The translations under genes and the position numbers were made by a program. DNA of 64,000 nt from an uncultured Candidatus Saccharibacteria bacterium (GTDB lineage: Bacteria; Patescibacteriota; Minisyncoccia; UBA6257; 2-01-FULL-56-20): contig CAYHXC010000001.1 of the NCBI GenBank assembly GCA_964360585.1, positions 21,907-85,906 on the forward strand. The letters run 5' to 3'. Under the pieces are notes generated by a model. It was not told the DNA's origin, ran no database searches, and saw only the letters and a list, made by a program, of their open reading frames with translations. Shown here piece after piece: positions 6,332-47,100 of the stretch. Position 1 is the stretch's first letter, and each line of letters begins with the position of its first letter.

Positions 6332-6430
6332 AATTTAAAATTAAAAATGTAAAGTTAAAAATTGAATGTATCCTGGCAAAATACCAGAGAAATCAGAATT
6401 TTTCATTTTGACTTTTGCCTTTTGCATTTT

Positions 6431-17242: not shown

Positions 17243-17268
17243 ACACCGGCTTTCGCCGGTGTTTTGCA
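17243..17268. terminator. Bidirectional terminator (aaaacaccggc tttc gccggtgtttt)
   Basis: 11-bp perfect stem. It lies just 3' of the rnpB P1 3' strand on the minus strand. Confidence 0.6.
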
Positions 17269-17292
17269 GTCATTCTATAAGCGGGATTCTGT

Positions 17293-17389
17293 CCCCCTGT
17301 CCTTAATCGTGAATCAGAGATTTCCTTCCTATGACCAATCAACTTAATTTTATTGACTGGCTCTCCATTCAAGACTAAGGACAGGGGGG
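17293..17389. mobile_element. Internally deleted derivative of the GIY-YIG element (14-bp TIR CCCCCTGTCCTTAA / TTAAGGACAGGGGG), inserted between the P2 and P4 3' strands of rnpB
   Basis: Same TIR as the pair flanking the GIY-YIG ORF at 17998-18282. The ends are similar (CCUUAGUC... / ...CGAUUAAGG). Only a ~9-codon ORF remains. Confidence 0.45.
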
Positions 17390-17530
17390 ACGATCATTTA
17401 TCTGGGCCGGCGATTACTCGCCGGCTCAAGTCCTTCGACTTCGCTCAGGATAAACCCAACTGAAATCGATGAGACTATGCGGCACAAACCAATGCTCCGC
17501 ATTGGAAATACAAAAGAAATCATAAACTCG

Positions 17531-17638
17531 AAGCACGAAACTCGAAACAATACTGAATGTCCAAAGTTCAAAGGTTTGAAACATTGGGAATTTGTTCGCC
17601 AGTTGGCGAATTGTTTCGGATTTCGATATTCGGATTTC
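17531..17638. repeat. IVS-like stem-loop inside rnpB, homologous to the stem flanking the four-helix-bundle cassette at 19720-20175
   Basis: Arms cgaagcacgaaactcgaaaca and tgtttcggatttcgatattcgg pair with each other. Both arms match the flanks at 19720-19750 and 20145-20172. Confidence 0.4.
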
Positions 17639-17997
17639 AAATTTCATCTTGTGCTTCCCAGTGCGAAGCACTGGAGTACGACCTTGCACTCAAGTAAGGA
17701 TTTAGCCGTTTCACCCTTCGACTTCGCTCAGGGTAAACCCTTCGATTTTACTCGAAAGCCCCAAGTTTATATGAAGGATCACCCCACTTCGCATAAAGCT
17801 CCGCGGGGCGGTTATATCCTTGCGGATATAACCGTCTCTGCTCGCACCTCTATCCTTCCCTTCAACTACGTTCAGGACTAGTAATCCTGAGTTACATCGA
17901 AGGATTGCGGACGGTGGCCGTTAACCACTACCGACTACGAAACTCTTTTAAGGATTAATCAGTCTTAAAAGAATCCCGTGAGTGTCCCGACTTTCCT

Positions 17998-18282
17998 CCC
18001 CCTGCCCTTAATCTTCGTTACTCGCCACAATACGTTTCTTTAATTCGCCGTAAGCTGTACTGAATTTTTTGAGCTGTCTTTCTCGTTTCTGAGCATCAGA
18101 CTTTTCGAGATAAGCTTCGTAATAAATCAGTACCCAGGGTTCTCGATATCTTGTTGCCGGAGATAAACCATTCTGATGCTCAGTAAATCTCCTTCGCAAA
18201 TTATCCGTACAACCAATGTACAGCTTACGATCTTTTTTACTTTTCAAAACGTACGTGTAGAACATCGACTAAGGGCGGGGGG
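17998..18282. mobile_element. GIY-YIG endonuclease element bounded by 14-bp inverted repeats, occupying the P3 position of rnpB
   Basis: TIR tccccctgcccttaa (17998-18011) and ctaagggcgggggg (18269-18282). The ORF start lies 3 nt inside one repeat and the stop codon lies within the other. Confidence 0.5.
18008..18265 (-). CDS. GIY-YIG nuclease family protein (small standalone, YhbQ/UPF0213-like)
   Basis: 85 aa, MFYTYVLKSKKDRKLYIGCTDNLRRRFTEHQNG...KSDAQKRERQLKK. Contains the GIY...YIG motif, the conserved Arg, and the Glu of the catalytic core. Confidence 0.75.
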   Translation of the reverse strand: MFYTYVLKSKKDRKLYIGCTDNLRRRFTEHQNGLSPATRYREPWVLIYYEAYLEKSDAQKRERQLKKFSTAYGELKKRIVASNED

Positions 18283-18344
18283 CGATCGTCCGAATGACCA
18301 TTTAATAGTCTAACATTTTCACACTTTTGTCAATCCAAGAGAAA

Positions 18345-19278: not shown

Positions 19279-19707
19279 CTAACGCTGCGCATCCAATGCC
19301 TGGTTCACCATCTTATCGGCTACTTTATTAAGCTCGCGCGGAATGTGTTTGAACGTTACCTTCTTAAAATCCAAACGTAAATTCCAGATCTCCATAAAAT
19401 ACAGTTGGAGTTTTTCGTCTTCGATCTTATAGATCGCATTCATCTGTTTCACGATCAACTCCGAGTCCATGCGCACCTCGACTTCCGTCTGCTTCGCTTT
19501 CGTTTTCCCGAGAAGTTGTTTGGCTTTTTTAAGCGCAAAAACTAAAGCCAAGTATTCTGCTTGATTATTAGTCATCACCCCCAAATACTCGCCGTATTCT
19601 TTTCCGCCTACCACCGCGCCCAAAGCCGCCGGCCCGGGATTACCTCTACTGCCACCGTCTGTGTAAATTATGAGCTTCGATTCAGTATTAAATAGTTGAG
19701 AGTTCAT
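19279..19707 (-). CDS. rnhA: Ribonuclease HI
   Basis: 142 aa, IYTDGGSRGNPGPAALGAV...NNQAEYLALVFAL...; RNase H type 1 catalytic DEDD residues present. Confidence 0.85.
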   Translation of the reverse strand: MNSQLFNTESKLIIYTDGGSRGNPGPAALGAVVGGKEYGEYLGVMTNNQAEYLALVFALKKAKQLLGKTKAKQTEVEVRMDSELIVKQMNAIYKIEDEKLQLYFMEIWNLRLDFKKVTFKHIPRELNKVADKMVNQALDAQR

Positions 19708-19719
19708 AATTTATAAATT

Positions 19720-20175
19720 CGAAATACTAATATCGAAATCCGAAACAATGTTTAAATTCATAAATTCAAATATCATTTTGATTTCTGCAAGATAGCTCCA
19801 AAAATCATCATTAATTCAGTTGATTCTTGGACTAAATCATTCCACTCTTTGACAAGAATAGTATCTATCTGAGTTTCTAACAAATTCAGCCAATATCTGC
19901 TTTCTTTTGCTTCTTTTCGAGAAATTTTAATACGCATCAAAAAATCTTTCTTGCTTAAAGCCTCATTCGCCTCTATATAGTTTGCACCAACAGATCCCGA
20001 AGAACGAACTAATTGCTTAATATCATCAATACTGGCAATACCTTTCGGCAGCTTCTTAACAAAACTTCTTACTTGTTTTGCAAAATCAAATGTTCTTTTC
20101 TCAAGATCATATTGTTTTGTATTTCGTACTTCGCTCATTTGAATTTGTTTCGATTTTCGTGCTTCGAATTTCGTA
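19720..20175. mobile_element. IVS-like stem-loop cassette carrying a four-helix-bundle gene
   Basis: Flanks cgaaatactaatatcgaaatccgaaacaatg (19720-19750) and tgtttcgattttcgtgcttcgaatttcg (20145-20172) are mutually complementary. Both are homologous to the stem inside rnpB (17531-17638). Confidence 0.4.
19773..20138 (-). CDS. Four-helix-bundle protein (23S rRNA intervening-sequence protein family, TIGR02436-like)
   Basis: 121 aa, ...GSVGANYIEANEALSKKDFLMRIKISRKEAKESRYWL... is the family signature. Confidence 0.75.
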   Translation of the reverse strand: MSEVRNTKQYDLEKRTFDFAKQVRSFVKKLPKGIASIDDIKQLVRSSGSVGANYIEANEALSKKDFLMRIKISRKEAKESRYWLNLLETQIDTILVKEWNDLVQESTELMMIFGAILQKSK

Positions 20176-20176
20176 T

Positions 20177-20788
20177 TTATCTTCCTAAAAGCTTTAGGAA
20201 GATCTGGTAGGTTGTTCTCGCATCATCAATCGCTCGATGCGCTCGTCCGCGATCAACTCCGAAATAATCAGCCATCTCCCGCAAAGAATAACGAGTGATT
20301 GCTGGTTCGTCCCTCAACATAAACCATCCCAAGGTAAATGTATCCAGTGGTTTATAAAAATAGTTGCTCTTCAAACCGTGCTCAAAAAGTGCTTTTTCGA
20401 GATGCAAGATATCTTTAGAAACATTCTGCCCGACCAAAATGACATCCTTGGTATAGCGCAAAAATTCCTGAAGCCCAGCTTTCATTTCCACTCCTTCCTT
20501 GGCCCACTCCTCGGGATCGTAGCCGCTAATCTCCAACCCATGCGGGTCGGCATTTTCAATGTGCTCCGGCTTCAGCTTAATATCTCGCTCGTGCAAAACA
20601 TCAAATGTTCCGGCTTTAACCTTCATCAAGCCTATCTCGGTTAATTCATGATCAAATCGGAGACCGGTAAACTCGCAATCAAAAAAAACGAGATCCCTCT
20701 CTTGCATTAATGGCTCTATTTCTGGAGTTGTGTTGTTTTCACTTAAATCAATATCGGACATGTGCTCATTCTCCCTCTTTTCCTTCAT
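20177..20788 (-). CDS. DEDDh 3'-5' exonuclease (DnaQ/epsilon-like)
   Basis: 203 aa, Exo I FFDCEFTGL and Exo III HRAIDDARTT motifs. Confidence 0.7.
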   Translation of the reverse strand: MKEKRENEHMSDIDLSENNTTPEIEPLMQERDLVFFDCEFTGLRFDHELTEIGLMKVKAGTFDVLHERDIKLKPEHIENADPHGLEISGYDPEEWAKEGVEMKAGLQEFLRYTKDVILVGQNVSKDILHLEKALFEHGLKSNYFYKPLDTFTLGWFMLRDEPAITRYSLREMADYFGVDRGRAHRAIDDARTTYQIFLKLLGR

Positions 20789-25405: not shown

Positions 25406-25941
25406 TCGGCGGCTTGCCGCGAGGTTACCATATAAAAACTTATGATAGAATGGCCGCATGGGCGTAACCCGGAGTCATCACTGTGTCTACGACACGCACT
25501 ATCATGTCGTCTTTCCCGTTAAGTATCGCAAAGCTTTGCTATCAGGACCTCTCACTCAAGCGATTCTGGAAATCGCCCAGGACATAGAAGAACGGTATGA
25601 AGTCACGTTTGAGAAGATTGGCACCGATGGCAACCACATTCATATCCTGTGGGCTTTCCACCCCAAGTACAGCGCCACCGACATGGTGCGTCGGTTCAAG
25701 AGCATCACCGCTCGCGAACTCTTCCGGCGATTTCCGGAATTGCGTCGTGACTTGTGGGGAGGCGAGTTCTGGACTGATGGCTACTCCATCGCTACAGTCG
25801 GTACCGGCGGCGATTGGAAAACCGTCGAACGATATGTGGCCAACCAGGGAAAGACGACAGGGCATAACCTCCAGCTCAGACTCTGGCAGTGAGCCCAGGT
25901 GGCCATTCCGCTTCATACCCCGTCGGCTTGCCGCGGGGTGG
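25406..25941 (+). mobile_element. IS200/IS605-family insertion sequence (TnpA only) with subterminal imperfect palindromes
   Basis: Subterminal hairpins cctcggcggcttgccgcgagg (25407-25427) and cccgtcggcttgccgcggggtgg (25919-25941) bracket a single Y1-HUH transposase gene. The element interrupts arsR-B without an obvious target duplication, as expected for IS200/IS605. Confidence 0.7.
25458..25892 (+). CDS. tnpA: IS200/IS605 family transposase TnpA (Y1 HUH)
   Basis: 144 aa, HYHVVFPVKYRK...GNHIHILWAFHPKYS...ITARELFRRFPELRRDLWGGEFWTDGYSIATVG. The HUH motif (HIH) and catalytic Tyr region are present. Confidence 0.8.
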   Translation: MGVTRSHHCVYDTHYHVVFPVKYRKALLSGPLTQAILEIAQDIEERYEVTFEKIGTDGNHIHILWAFHPKYSATDMVRRFKSITARELFRRFPELRRDLWGGEFWTDGYSIATVGTGGDWKTVERYVANQGKTTGHNLQLRLWQ

Positions 25942-29104: not shown

Positions 29105-29212
29105 TAAATTTAAAATTCAAAAATCAAAATTAAAAATGACAGTGCGAAACTCAAAATGAGCATCAACGAGAATTAAAAAAAGTCTCGAGCGAATTTCGCC
29201 GAGACTGTTTCC

Positions 29213-32460: not shown

Positions 32461-32500
32461 GGGTAGGGGGTAGGGTTGAGGGTATAGGGGTTAGGGTCGG
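32461..32500. repeat. G-rich telomere-like heptamer repeats (GGGTAGGGGGTAGGGTTGAGGGTATAGGGTTAGGGTCGGG) abutting the start codon of the 32059..32457 gene
   Basis: TAGGG(G/T) units. On the coding (minus) strand they form a C-rich CCCUA-repeat leader that ends at the AUG. Confidence 0.5.
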
Positions 32501-32676
32501 GATAGGAAGGAATCTAGAATTTAGGAGTTAGAATCTAGTTATGAAGTAGTAGTGGCAGGATTAGTCCAGAAGCCGCCCCTCTAACTCCTAGATTCTAAAT
32601 TCTAATTCCCTCGAGTGCTGGTCCTCTCTCCTATCCCCTAGTCACTCATCACTAGTTCCTGTTACTATAGTATACA

Positions 32677-34710: not shown

Positions 34711-35011
34711 TGATTTCTACTTCAGTGAATGGCTGGCGGTGGCCTTTGCGGCGACGCAAGCGAGTTTTGGAATGGTACTTGAAGATTAACTTCTTTTCGC
34801 CTCGTCCTTGCATGAGAACCTTGGCGGCAACTTTCTCCGAGGCTACATAAGGCTGACCAACTTTAACAGTGTCACCATTAACGTTCAGAAGCACACGATC
34901 AAAAGAAATATCGCTTCCGGAAGCGGCTTCTAATTTTTCGATTTTCAGTTTGTCGCCAGCGGAAACCTTGTACTGCTTCCCGCCGGTTTCGATGATTGCG
35001 AAATTTGGCAT
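34694..35011 (-). CDS. rplU: 50S ribosomal protein L21
   Basis: 105 aa, MPNFAIIETGGKQYKV...GHRQPFTEVEI, L21 family. Confidence 0.85.
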   Translation of the reverse strand: MPNFAIIETGGKQYKVSAGDKLKIEKLEAASGSDISFDRVLLNVNGDTVKVGQPYVASEKVAAKVLMQGRGEKKLIFKYHSKTRLRRRKGHRQPFTEVEITKLPS

Positions 35012-35045
35012 AGGGGTTAGGGGTTAGGGGTTAGGGGTTAGGGTT
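35012..35045. repeat. Four tandem GGGGTTA heptamers (telomere-like) immediately upstream of the rplU start codon
   Basis: aggggttaggggttaggggttaggggttagggttg, followed at 35060-35087 by the C-rich complement-like acccttgaccctacaccctaatccc. Confidence 0.55.
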
Positions 35046-35088
35046 GAATTTTCACTATACCCTTGACCCTACACCCTAATCCCTGTAG

Positions 35089-35454
35089 TTAGTTGACCGT
35101 GATAATAGCTTGAAACACGGTAAAAAGCAAGATAGATAAGCCGAGTGTGACAGCGGCAACAAACTTTCCCCAAAACCAATCCCGATATTCGAGCTCAAGC
35201 GCAATGGCATAGTTTATACCGACGACTACCCAACCAATAACGCCATAGCCAAGAACCTGGGCCAAAGTACCAAACTGATCTATGCCATCACGGGTGTAGT
35301 GAATAACAAGCGGTCCACTATGATCACGGAAAGTAGAAAAAAGAAGCGCCTGCCCGATAAGAATAATCAGAAACGCCAGGCCCGATACAATACTCACGAG
35401 TTGGCGCGCCTTAGCTCGGTCCCATATTTTTTTAAGTTGGATGCGCGCGTTCAT
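35089..35454 (-). CDS. Hypothetical membrane protein (3-4 TM helices)
   Basis: 121 aa, hydrophobic. Confidence 0.35.
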   Translation of the reverse strand: MNARIQLKKIWDRAKARQLVSIVSGLAFLIILIGQALLFSTFRDHSGPLVIHYTRDGIDQFGTLAQVLGYGVIGWVVVGINYAIALELEYRDWFWGKFVAAVTLGLSILLFTVFQAIITVN

Positions 35455-36445: not shown

Positions 36446-36478
36446 AAATAGTGTATAGGGTTTAGGGCTTAGGGGCTA
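36446..36478. repeat. G-rich TAGGG(T/C/G) repeats abutting the galT-like start codon
   Basis: tagggtttagggcttaggggctagggc begins 3 nt from the ATG at 36443. Confidence 0.5.
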
Positions 36479-36520
36479 GGGCAGTAGCTAGTAGTTAGGA
36501 TCTAGGAGCTATATAATCAA

Positions 36521-46318: not shown

Positions 46319-47065
46319 TCATGCAGTAGATTCGTTCGGTTTAATAATTATATCAGAGAAATGCTCGGCCTGTTCGATGATGATGGTTTGTTCGCGAGCG
46401 AGATGGAGAATCGCCAAAAAAGCGACGATAACGTCCGATCGGTCTCCTGATTTTGATAATTTGGAAAAGGTTGTCTCCTCAATGCGGTGCAACCGCTCAA
46501 GAATATGCTGCATTTTTTCCTCAAGCGTCACGATCACACTCCGCATAACCTCTTCCTCCAGAATGATCTTCTGAAGCGATTGGGTCAGTCGTTCCATGTG
46601 AGGAATGAGATTTTCAAGTGCGAGCGTCTCCCCGGGATAAAAAGTATTGTGCGATACATCCTGCGGCAGGTTTCTCGAGATAGAAAGAAAATAAGGACGA
46701 CTGGATTCCTTTTCCTCCGAACGCCAGAGTTGGGCGACCAACCTTCCCGCCTCCTTGAACTCCCGATAGGCCTTCAACCGCTCTTCAAGTTCAACCAGAT
46801 TTTCTTCGTCTTCCATTGTCATCGGAAGATCGGGCAAAAGAGATTTCGATTTTAAAAGGATCAGCTGGCTCGCGATCACAATAAAATCAGCCAGCAAGGC
46901 CGGCGGCGCTTCGCCAAGCGTTTCCACGTGTTTCAAAAAGTCATCGGTCACTTTGGCCATGCTCAAACGGCTCACATCCATCTTCTCCGATTCGATGAGT
47001 TCAAGAAGTTTGTCTAACGGCCCGGAGAACTCTCCGAGACGCAGTTCATAAGAGACAATGATCAT
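46319..47065 (-). CDS. scpA: Segregation and condensation protein A (kleisin)
   Basis: 248 aa, ScpA family. Confidence 0.7.
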   Translation of the reverse strand: MIIVSYELRLGEFSGPLDKLLELIESEKMDVSRLSMAKVTDDFLKHVETLGEAPPALLADFIVIASQLILLKSKSLLPDLPMTMEDEENLVELEERLKAYREFKEAGRLVAQLWRSEEKESSRPYFLSISRNLPQDVSHNTFYPGETLALENLIPHMERLTQSLQKIILEEEVMRSVIVTLEEKMQHILERLHRIEETTFSKLSKSGDRSDVIVAFLAILHLAREQTIIIEQAEHFSDIIIKPNESTA

Positions 47066-47066
47066 A

Positions 47067-47100
47067 GGGTGTAGGGGTTAGGGTATAGGGTATAGGGTAG
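47067..47100. repeat. G-rich TAGGG(T/G) repeats abutting the scpA start codon
   Basis: gggtgtaggggttagggtatagggtatagggtag begins 1 nt from the ATG at 47065. Confidence 0.5.

Follow-up and report, generated by a model that had tools for sequence, protein, structure and literature searches.

A loaded cassette at an operon junction

The DNA analysed here is a 64,000-nt stretch (the window) of contig CAYHXC010000001.1 from an uncultured Candidatus Saccharibacteria bacterium, obtained from the Hainich groundwater metagenome (well H51, 0.1 µm fraction). Between the gene of a DEDDh 3'-5' exonuclease and the RNase H gene rnhA it holds a small cassette in which two inverted arrays of seven-nucleotide units (heptads) enclose an open reading frame (ORF) for a four-helix-bundle (4HB) protein, and a related hairpin lacking this ORF lies inside the RNase P RNA gene, rnpB. 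The features of the loaded copy are listed first.

19279..19707, minus strand: RNase H gene (rnhA), the downstream host gene (PF00075 and PF13456)
19713..20180, minus strand: loaded cassette, 468 bp, two inverted heptad arms and the 4HB ORF (inverted repeat; folds; junction empty in relatives)
19713..19749, minus strand: arm downstream of the ORF, reading ATTGTTTCGG ATTTCGA TATTAGT ATTTCGA ATTTAT on the minus strand
19773..20138, minus strand: 4HB protein gene, 121 aa (PF05635 / TIGR02436 profile matches)
20145..20180, minus strand: arm upstream of the ORF, reading ATAAATACG AAATTCG AAGCACG AAAATCG AAACAA on the minus strand, followed by ATTCAA and ATG
20177..20788, minus strand: DEDDh 3'-5' exonuclease gene, the upstream host gene (PF00929, RNase_T family, E 2e-19)

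An earlier examination of the letters alone (the sequence-only reading) had described a four-helix-bundle gene, held in the loop of a stem formed by mutually complementary flanks and situated between rnhA and a DnaQ-like exonuclease gene, and each part of this description was borne out. The ORF matches PF05635 (E 7.7e-15; 55.5 bits, cut-off 33.8), the TIGR02436 family named 'four helix bundle protein' (E 1e-19; 70.7 bits, cut-off 24), and the pentameric structure PDB 2rld (E 5e-12), and the neighbours carry the RNase H and DEDDh domains given above. A hidden Markov model (HMM) of the family found no second 4HB gene in the window. The arms form an inverted repeat (19713-19748 versus 20145-20180, 36 nt, 78% complementary) and are paired in the minimum-energy folds of both strands, with a z of only about -2.6 for the whole 491 nt. 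The upstream arm agrees with the family consensus AAAtnCgAAannCgAAatnCgAAATnCGAAACAAATtCAAATG, and the downstream arm contains a 21-mer that is conserved across phyla. The ORF has no Shine-Dalgarno sequence, and its start codon lies inside the stem region.

Three contigs from related genomes (L213, L214 and L215), with exonuclease homologues of 80%, 78% and 66% identity, show the junction without the cassette, their exonuclease and rnhA genes overlapping by 4 nt (ATGA). The same genes are 468 bp apart in the window, where the exonuclease now stops at a TAA (20179-20177) composed of a T and the first two A's of the element, thus overlapping the first bases of the upstream arm, and where the rnhA ATG is retained. 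Since the two genes overlap without any element in all three relatives, the loaded copy is a lineage-specific insertion. The exact 4HB protein is present on six independently assembled contigs from replicate samples, two of which (L001 and L002) also have both rnpB P4 motifs, and as all six keep the exonuclease-4HB-rnhA order the arrangement is not an assembly artefact.

An ORF-less copy in the RNase P RNA gene

The second copy and the landmarks of its host gene are the following.

17268..18299, minus strand: RNase P RNA gene (rnpB), 1,032 nt (motif reading, weak Rfam match, homology to L210, L208 and L207)
18299-18292 / 17275-17268, minus strand: P1, GGUCAUUC / GAAUGACU
P2, minus strand: GACGAUC / GAUCGUC
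17997-17984 / 17292-17277, minus strand: P4, AGGAAAGUCGGGAC / ACAGAAUCCCGCUUAU
17424-17407, minus strand: P18, CCGGCGAGUAAUCGCCGG
directly 3' of P18, minus strand: J18/2, CCCAGAUAAAUGAUCGUC
17503..17660, minus strand: ORF-less cassette, arms 17610-17645 and 17516-17551 with 58 nt between them

The window rnpB stays below the Rfam gathering score, reaching only 18.8 bits (E 0.0038) in E-value mode, and its S-domain alone gave no match. By its sequence it is nevertheless a real gene for a bacterial type A RNase P RNA. P1, P2, P4, P18 and J18/2 are all readable, and the gene aligns block by block with those of three relatives, located through the GIY-YIG protein described below, which score 164 bits (L210, RNaseP_bact_a), 44 (L208) and 34 (L207). 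Upstream of P1 there is a promoter-like TTGACA hexamer (18331-18326), and a terminator hairpin (17262-17237) follows the 3' end. The P4 pairs carry mutually compensating changes relative to the E. coli M1 RNA sequence. The inserts, together with the GIY-YIG ORF in P3, push rnpB below the Rfam detection threshold in these genomes.

The sequence-only reading had placed a recurrence of the two flanks, around a spacer without an ORF, within rnpB, and this placement holds. The 158-nt hairpin (17503-17660) is predicted to fold with -50.2 kcal/mol (z -5.7; none of 200 shuffles was equally stable), degenerate outer heptads lengthen its stem, and the 58 nt between the arms hold no ORF of the 4HB family. 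Its arms match those of the loaded copy in inverted orientation (17610-17644 versus 19715-19749, 35 nt, 91% identical; 17512-17572 versus 20123-20183, 61 nt, 72% match). The two copies have a 21-mer in common without any difference and a 22-mer with one mismatch, where shuffles lead one to expect 0.00 and 0.01, and neither nhmmer nor a relaxed heptad scan found a further copy in the window. The match also takes in non-periodic sequence, and on the plus strand the rnpB copy keeps a remnant, ATGTCCAAAGTTCAAAGG, that resembles the 4HB start region. The two copies lie in opposite DNA orientation within hosts that are both transcribed from the minus strand, so the rnpB copy is transcribed in the sense opposite to the ORF-bearing one.

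The hairpin is situated between the 5' strand of P15 (GCAAGGUCG) and P18, in the P15-P17 region, which in L208 consists from P15 to P18 of no more than a 16-nt hairpin, CCCGGCGAAAGCCGGG. It is missing from rnpB of all three relatives (L207, L208 and L210), which marks it as a lineage-specific insertion, and Rfam offers no family over it at E up to 1. One may ask whether it could instead be a native expansion segment that came to resemble the 4HB flanks by gene conversion or by convergence of simple repeats. RNase P RNAs of the candidate phyla radiation (CPR) do carry long helix extensions, including of P15, in a peripheral region known to vary (PMC8172020), and the window rnpB has several other lineage-specific extensions. 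However, the hairpin is missing from all three relatives, the resemblance extends to non-periodic sequence and to the start-codon remnant, and the same hairpin is found in hundreds of unrelated settings; we regard this explanation as very improbable.

A family of cassettes across phyla

The arms are inverted arrays of CGAANNN heptads in which NNN is ATC, ATT, ATA, GCA, TAT, ACT or ACA. Strict arrays, defined as at least three CGAANNN units, occur in the window at the two cassette loci only, with 0.04 expected. Outside the window, an exact scan of the GTDB species genomes (596 Gb) for the 21-mer AATATCGAAATCCGAAACAAT recovered it from at least 120 species genomes in at least nine phyla, against about 0.3 expected by chance; these and the following counts are lower bounds among the matches listed. 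Going by the titles of their records, they comprise 29 loci in Patescibacteria, 49 in Desulfobacterota, 13 in Planctomycetota, 11 in Verrucomicrobiota or Lentisphaerota and 5 in Omnitrophota, with others in WOR-3, Acidobacteriota, Binatia and Proteobacteria. Of the 120 listed loci, some 75 fold into hairpins without an ORF, the arms being 30-200 nt apart, and about 8 enclose a 4HB gene. Some genomes have several copies (CAWDJO01 has 3). In a Saccharibacteria 16S rRNA gene (L109) helix 40 has an ORF-less copy as its tip, and other copies adjoin tRNA genes (L008, L023, L046 and L135). Contamination from one organism is an unlikely source of the cross-phylum copies, because flanking genes and GC content vary from locus to locus.

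These observations also bear on whether the heptad arrays could be independent products of replication slippage, the two window loci then not being homologous. Heptameric repeats are over-represented in many bacteria, with slippage proposed as the cause (PMC4692102), and the window does contain several other period-7 arrays. Yet the 21-mer strings together three distinct heptad variants, and it is the same, order included, at both loci and in at least 120 species; it is not the product of a single repeated unit, and the start-codon junction is conserved as well. Independent slippage at the two loci is, in our judgement, hardly credible.

Homologues of the 4HB protein with 63-76% identity are found in many phyla. 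A sample chosen by the protein only, and thus without regard to the repeats, consisted of 80 metagenome loci (63-72% identity), 75 of them with complete flanks. Strict arrays were present on both sides of the gene in 50 of these 75, on one side in 22 and on neither in 3. The consensus 5' of the ORF in this sample is AAAtnCgAAannCgAAatnCgAAATnCGAAACAAATtCAA-ATG, without a Shine-Dalgarno sequence, and the start region finds its complement in the sequence that follows the stop codon (GTTTTGAACATTTGAA...). Loaded elements cluster at about 460-500 bp. ORF-less copies retain CAAATGACCAAAAC, the start of the ORF, which indicates that they originated by internal deletion.

The genes hosting the loaded elements are unrelated between loci, and the orientation of the ORF is biased: it has the direction of the upstream gene in 56/63 cases, of the downstream gene in 53/66 and of both in 43/56. 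The upstream reading frame usually ends 0-2 nt from the first heptad. This layout fits expression of the ORF by read-through from the host operon and suggests that it may be coupled to termination of the upstream gene.

The sequence-only reading had held that a loaded and an empty copy of one module behave like a mobile intervening sequence, and had named the absence of further copies and of stable pairing between the flanks as findings that would speak against this. Copies were found in other genomes and stable pairing is predicted, and with both insertions lineage-specific and many copies elsewhere the idea of mobility is supported.

Some variants of the family deserve mention. The cargo is the 4HB gene only, save for two single cases in which CGAANNN arms enclose another gene: a PemK/MazF-like toxin (PF02452, E 3e-15; L044:1685-2383) and a small ORF with a weak DUF977 match (E 3.5e-05; L041 at about 2772). 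At six loci (L132, L159, L160, L172, L193 and L198) CTAA/TTAG replaces CGAA/TTCG in every heptad of both arms with pairing preserved, and the host flanks show no CpG depletion. Co-evolution of this CG-to-TA subtype with the protein was considered and found weak (identity 0.74 within versus 0.67 between, n = 6 including duplicates). Small GC-rich hairpins are nested in the heptad arms of several copies (window 17590-17606; L106 at about 8000-7470, minus strand; L153; L021); those of the window rnpB copy, TTCGCCAACTGGCGAA, and of a Campbellbacteria copy, TTCGCCAGCCGGCGAA, occupy the same place right after AAACAAT.

Selection on the protein and on the arms

The 4HB protein is under purifying selection, with a ratio of non-synonymous to synonymous substitution rates (dN/dS) of about 0.13, dS being saturated in most pairs. 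Pairwise identity is 0.30, essentially random, at four-fold degenerate sites of the gene and 0.58-0.62, even with gaps disallowed, in the upstream arm, and as the arms exceed the four-fold sites they are constrained in sequence. The arms are 72-78% complementary and transversions (719) prevail among the mismatches. This pattern is expected of inverted recognition sequences that are held to a family consensus, and less so of an RNA helix maintained by compensatory change. A covariation model of the arms was dropped, there being no wobble asymmetry and within-element complementarity being only marginally higher.

Constraint of this kind is likewise what one would see if the hairpin were a structured element useful to the host, acting as an RNA processing or stabilising site or in translational coupling at operon junctions, with the 4HB protein as a small travelling regulator. 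Its location exactly at stop/start junctions, co-directional with the operon, agrees with such a role, as do the distant 4HB genes that occupy equivalent positions in defence operons of different phyla (DUF1156/Swt1-HEPN in Gloeocapsa and Chlorohelix). It is harder to reconcile with the presence of the same sequence in rnpB, in 16S rRNA and beside tRNA genes, with the unrelated host genes at each locus, and with close relatives that do without the cassette at both window loci. On this balance a host-useful element seems unlikely.

A probable small selfish cassette

The reading that we prefer, and consider probable, is that the two sequences belong, as copies, to a single family of small selfish cassettes that is widespread. 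A full cassette of about 470-500 bp consists of 4-6 CGAANNN heptads, CGAAACAAATTCAA-ATG, the 121-aa 4HB gene (S23p/Avd-like) and the inverted heptad array, and a transcript of either strand can fold into a long imperfect hairpin with the ORF in the loop and the start codon buried. Internal deletion would give rise to ORF-less hairpins of 100-200 nt that keep the start-codon region, as MITEs (miniature inverted-repeat transposable elements) arise from full transposons; empty copies do outnumber full ones. One full copy entered the 4-nt overlap of the exonuclease and rnhA genes, and one empty copy the peripheral P15-P17 region of rnpB. Such elements may persist by landing at gene junctions or at dispensable helix tips and by folding back on themselves. 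The ORF itself brings neither a promoter signal nor a Shine-Dalgarno sequence, and it would be read from the transcript of the host operon, the upstream stop codon usually abutting the first heptad.

By analogy with 23S rRNA intervening sequences (IVSs), the stem would be cut by RNase III. The arms, we infer, are recognition sequences for a factor that moves or maintains the cassette. This factor may be the 4HB pentamer, a candidate because the only characterised relative, Avd, is an RNA-binding barrel.

Several observations weigh against the proposal. The cassette is not accompanied by a transposase or recombinase, a helical bundle of 121 aa is not an obvious catalyst, and the homologous ORF of Coxiella appears to be untranslated. 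No clear target-site duplication is seen: at the exonuclease/rnhA site a possible 2-bp duplication would be either AT or TA, and the relatives compared there are distant; the element ends T/AAAT...ATTT/A are frequent in the family, not constant. Wobble-compatible mismatches number 205 in the sense and 241 in the antisense direction and thus give no sign of selection for pairing at the RNA level on the ORF strand, and complementarity is little greater within elements (41.9) than between unrelated elements (38.9, p = 0.04). The strong conservation of sequence across phyla, finally, might just as well stem from usefulness to the host.

Relation to known systems

One close parallel is with the 23S rRNA IVSs that carry S23p ORFs in Leptospira, Coxiella, Brucella and of Xanthomonas type. 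In both systems terminal inverted repeats form a stem with a PF05635 gene in its loop, the Shine-Dalgarno sequence is poor or absent, the insert is located in a peripheral helix of a structural RNA, and selfishness has been suspected (PMC4990558). The stem of the Coxiella IVS is cut by RNase III, and tandem heptamers (GACAGAT) precede its S23p start codon (PMC4990558). Insertions in CPR 16S and 23S rRNA genes also carry 23S_rRNA_IVP ORFs (PMC11270868). The cassette described here differs in its CGAANNN unit, in its many ORF-less copies in at least nine phyla, in that cleavage by RNase III is inferred only, and in its hosts, which are an mRNA junction and rnpB and not helix 25 or 45 of 23S rRNA. 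Terminal inverted repeats forming an enclosing stem are thus shared with IVSs, and location in an rRNA helix is not shared by the window copies; the window contains no rRNA gene.

[quoted passage not shown] STRR heptamers extend helix P12 in cyanobacterial rnpB, according to Vioque 1997 as cited in PMC2858038, and Xanthomonas and Nostoc (PMC4692102), like Beggiatoa (PMC4679880), are rich in heptamer repeats, convergent pairs among them. The cassette family shares with those repeats the tandem arrangement of 7-nt units in intergenic DNA and the frequent convergent pairs that can give stem-loops, and with STRR the extension of a helix inside a functional RNase P RNA gene; it differs in phyla, in unit and in the helix of rnpB concerned (P15-P17 in place of P12).

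MITEs, enterobacterial repetitive intergenic consensus elements or intergenic repeat units (ERIC/IRU), Correia elements and REPINs are likewise short, intergenic, bounded by terminal inverted repeats and co-transcribed with their neighbours, with ORF-less copies commoner than full ones and several copies per genome. The cassettes are MITE-like in their terminal inverted repeats, their small size, their presence in several copies and their ORF-less derivatives, and they lack the cognate transposase of a MITE. They differ from all these elements in having no matching transposase or RAYT (transposase associated with repetitive extragenic palindromic, REP, sequences), and in their helical-bundle cargo, internally periodic arms and cross-phylum sequence. 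An IS200/IS605-type Y1 transposase gene (PF01797) is encoded at 25458-25892 (plus strand), 5.3 kb from the cassette. As no heptad array was found near this gene, a REP/RAYT model was rejected.

A homologue of the 4HB protein, Avd of diversity-generating retroelements (DGRs), forms a four-helix-bundle pentamer and binds structured RNA (10.1101/2023.10.23.563531; PMC10053308); according to the former report it is a positively charged barrel. The 4HB gene differs from Avd genes in that no reverse transcriptase, template repeat (TR) or variable repeat (VR) is adjacent. A DGR model was also rejected, as the gene is flanked by an exonuclease and an RNase H gene and not by a reverse transcriptase, and a repeat search gave no TR/VR pair.

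In the literature we found no link of 4HB genes to heptamer arrays, no ORF-less derivatives and no CGAANNN family, coverage being incomplete and a prior description possible; searches with the repeat sequence itself matched only unrelated primers.

Distant PF05635 genes and other period-7 arrays

The association of PF05635 genes with period-7 arrays extends beyond the CGAANNN family. All 14 distant plasmid genes considered (L216-L223 and L249-L254; 30-42% identity over at least 60% of the query), from Cyanobacteriota, Bacteroidota, Chloroflexota, Bacillota and Spirochaetota, have such arrays on their flanks, with units that differ by host.

Nostoc flagelliforme: (AATTCAA)4 / (TTGAATT)4, 31 nt, 100% complementary
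Nostoc punctiforme: (AATTCGC)4 / (GCGAATT)4
Nostoc sp. ATCC 53789: (CTTGCGA)n
Planktothrix: AATCCCC and AATCGTA
Euhalothece: (CTGGTCA)13
Gloeocapsa and Chlorohelix: TTTTAGA
Monoglobus: AATTAGG
Treponema: CCGCTCT
Bernardetia: CTAAAAT, here in direct orientation

In 50 kb of one Nostoc plasmid taken as a control, a region of 52 genes, about 9 loci had period-7 arrays, for the most part empty inverted pairs, a density too low for the 14/14 adjacency to be a background effect. Several of the units (AATCCCC and CTGGTCA among them) resemble cyanobacterial STRR consensus units. Many of the distant 4HB genes split defence operons (cas2/cas1, hsdS/hsdR, helicase/methylase), and DUF1156/Swt1-HEPN is split in both Gloeocapsa and Chlorohelix, which belong to two phyla. 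The presence of 4HB genes inside cas loci has been noted before (PMC3936711). A resemblance of TTCGAAT to the tRNA T-loop was rejected as a clue, the other 4HB-associated heptads being unrelated to the T-loop.

No member of the 4HB subfamily with CGAANNN arms was found on sequenced plasmids or in sequenced phages; the relatives there have at most 45% identity over at least 60% of the query (one 48-residue fragment has 54%). About 17 of 24 IMG/VR matches to a 17-mer were genuine hairpins, the number of matches being near chance expectation.

Three puzzles of some 30-35 years' standing meet here: the nature of 23S rRNA IVSs and their S23p ORFs, the role of the common 'four helix bundle protein' genes, and the origin of heptanucleotide repeats such as cyanobacterial STRR, Xanthomonas GGGAATC and Beggiatoa TAACTGA. 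The window links them by a 4HB gene within a heptad-repeat hairpin and an empty copy in rnpB, and gives rise to the testable hypothesis that the 4HB protein recognises its own repeats. One may speculate further that PF05635 proteins and heptanucleotide-repeat hairpins make up one unrecognised, bacteria-wide class of mobile elements, in which the 4HB pentamer would recognise its own arrays and promote their copying or spread, drawing on host enzymes or, as Avd does, on a reverse transcriptase, and of which 23S IVSs, STRR and Xanthomonas-type heptamers would be manifestations or decayed remnants. We hold this generalisation to be rather doubtful at present.

In the tandem repeats of the window, a period of 7 is more frequent than any other. 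Further heptad arrays, which belong to other families (AAAANNN, TAGGGNT), are located at the ends of genes at 6332-6430, 29106-29137, 32461-32640, 35011-35090, 36456-36511 and 47064-47099. Three of them form long hairpins, one being (TAGGGGT)4.7 with ACCCTNN units, predicted at -54 kcal/mol and with co-directional genes on either side.

Other stems and repeats in rnpB

The window rnpB contains, apart from the heptad hairpin, an ORF for an 85-aa GIY-YIG nuclease (18008-18265, minus strand) that fills the P3 loop (17998-18282) on the sense strand. The 5' strand of P3 stops shortly ahead of the ATG, and the 3' strand shares bases with the stop codon. Three related Patescibacteria keep this arrangement (L207:2986-3285, L208:1737-2021 and L210:2984-3278; proteins 63-74% identical), in each genome just downstream of an RNase H gene, and NCBI annotates the protein as coming from a Patescibacteria metagenome-assembled genome. 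In the literature we found no report of a protein-coding ORF within bacterial rnpB.

The P3 stem sequence around this ORF (CCCCCCGCCCTTAGTC...GATTAAGGGCAGGGGG) is repeated without an ORF at the P19 position (17293-17388), and L210 repeats its own P3 stem sequence as an empty hairpin in the P15-P17 region (L210:3493-3527). These P3-type stems thus constitute a second pair of loaded and empty stems, unrelated in sequence to the heptad family. A short repeat, CCTTCGACTTCGCTCAGGRTAAACCC, is present in rnpB in 4-5 direct and inverted copies (17430-17457, 17713-17740, 17737-17753, 17857-17873 and 17884-17904), and one pair of these extends P9 by a segment that is missing in L207 and L208.

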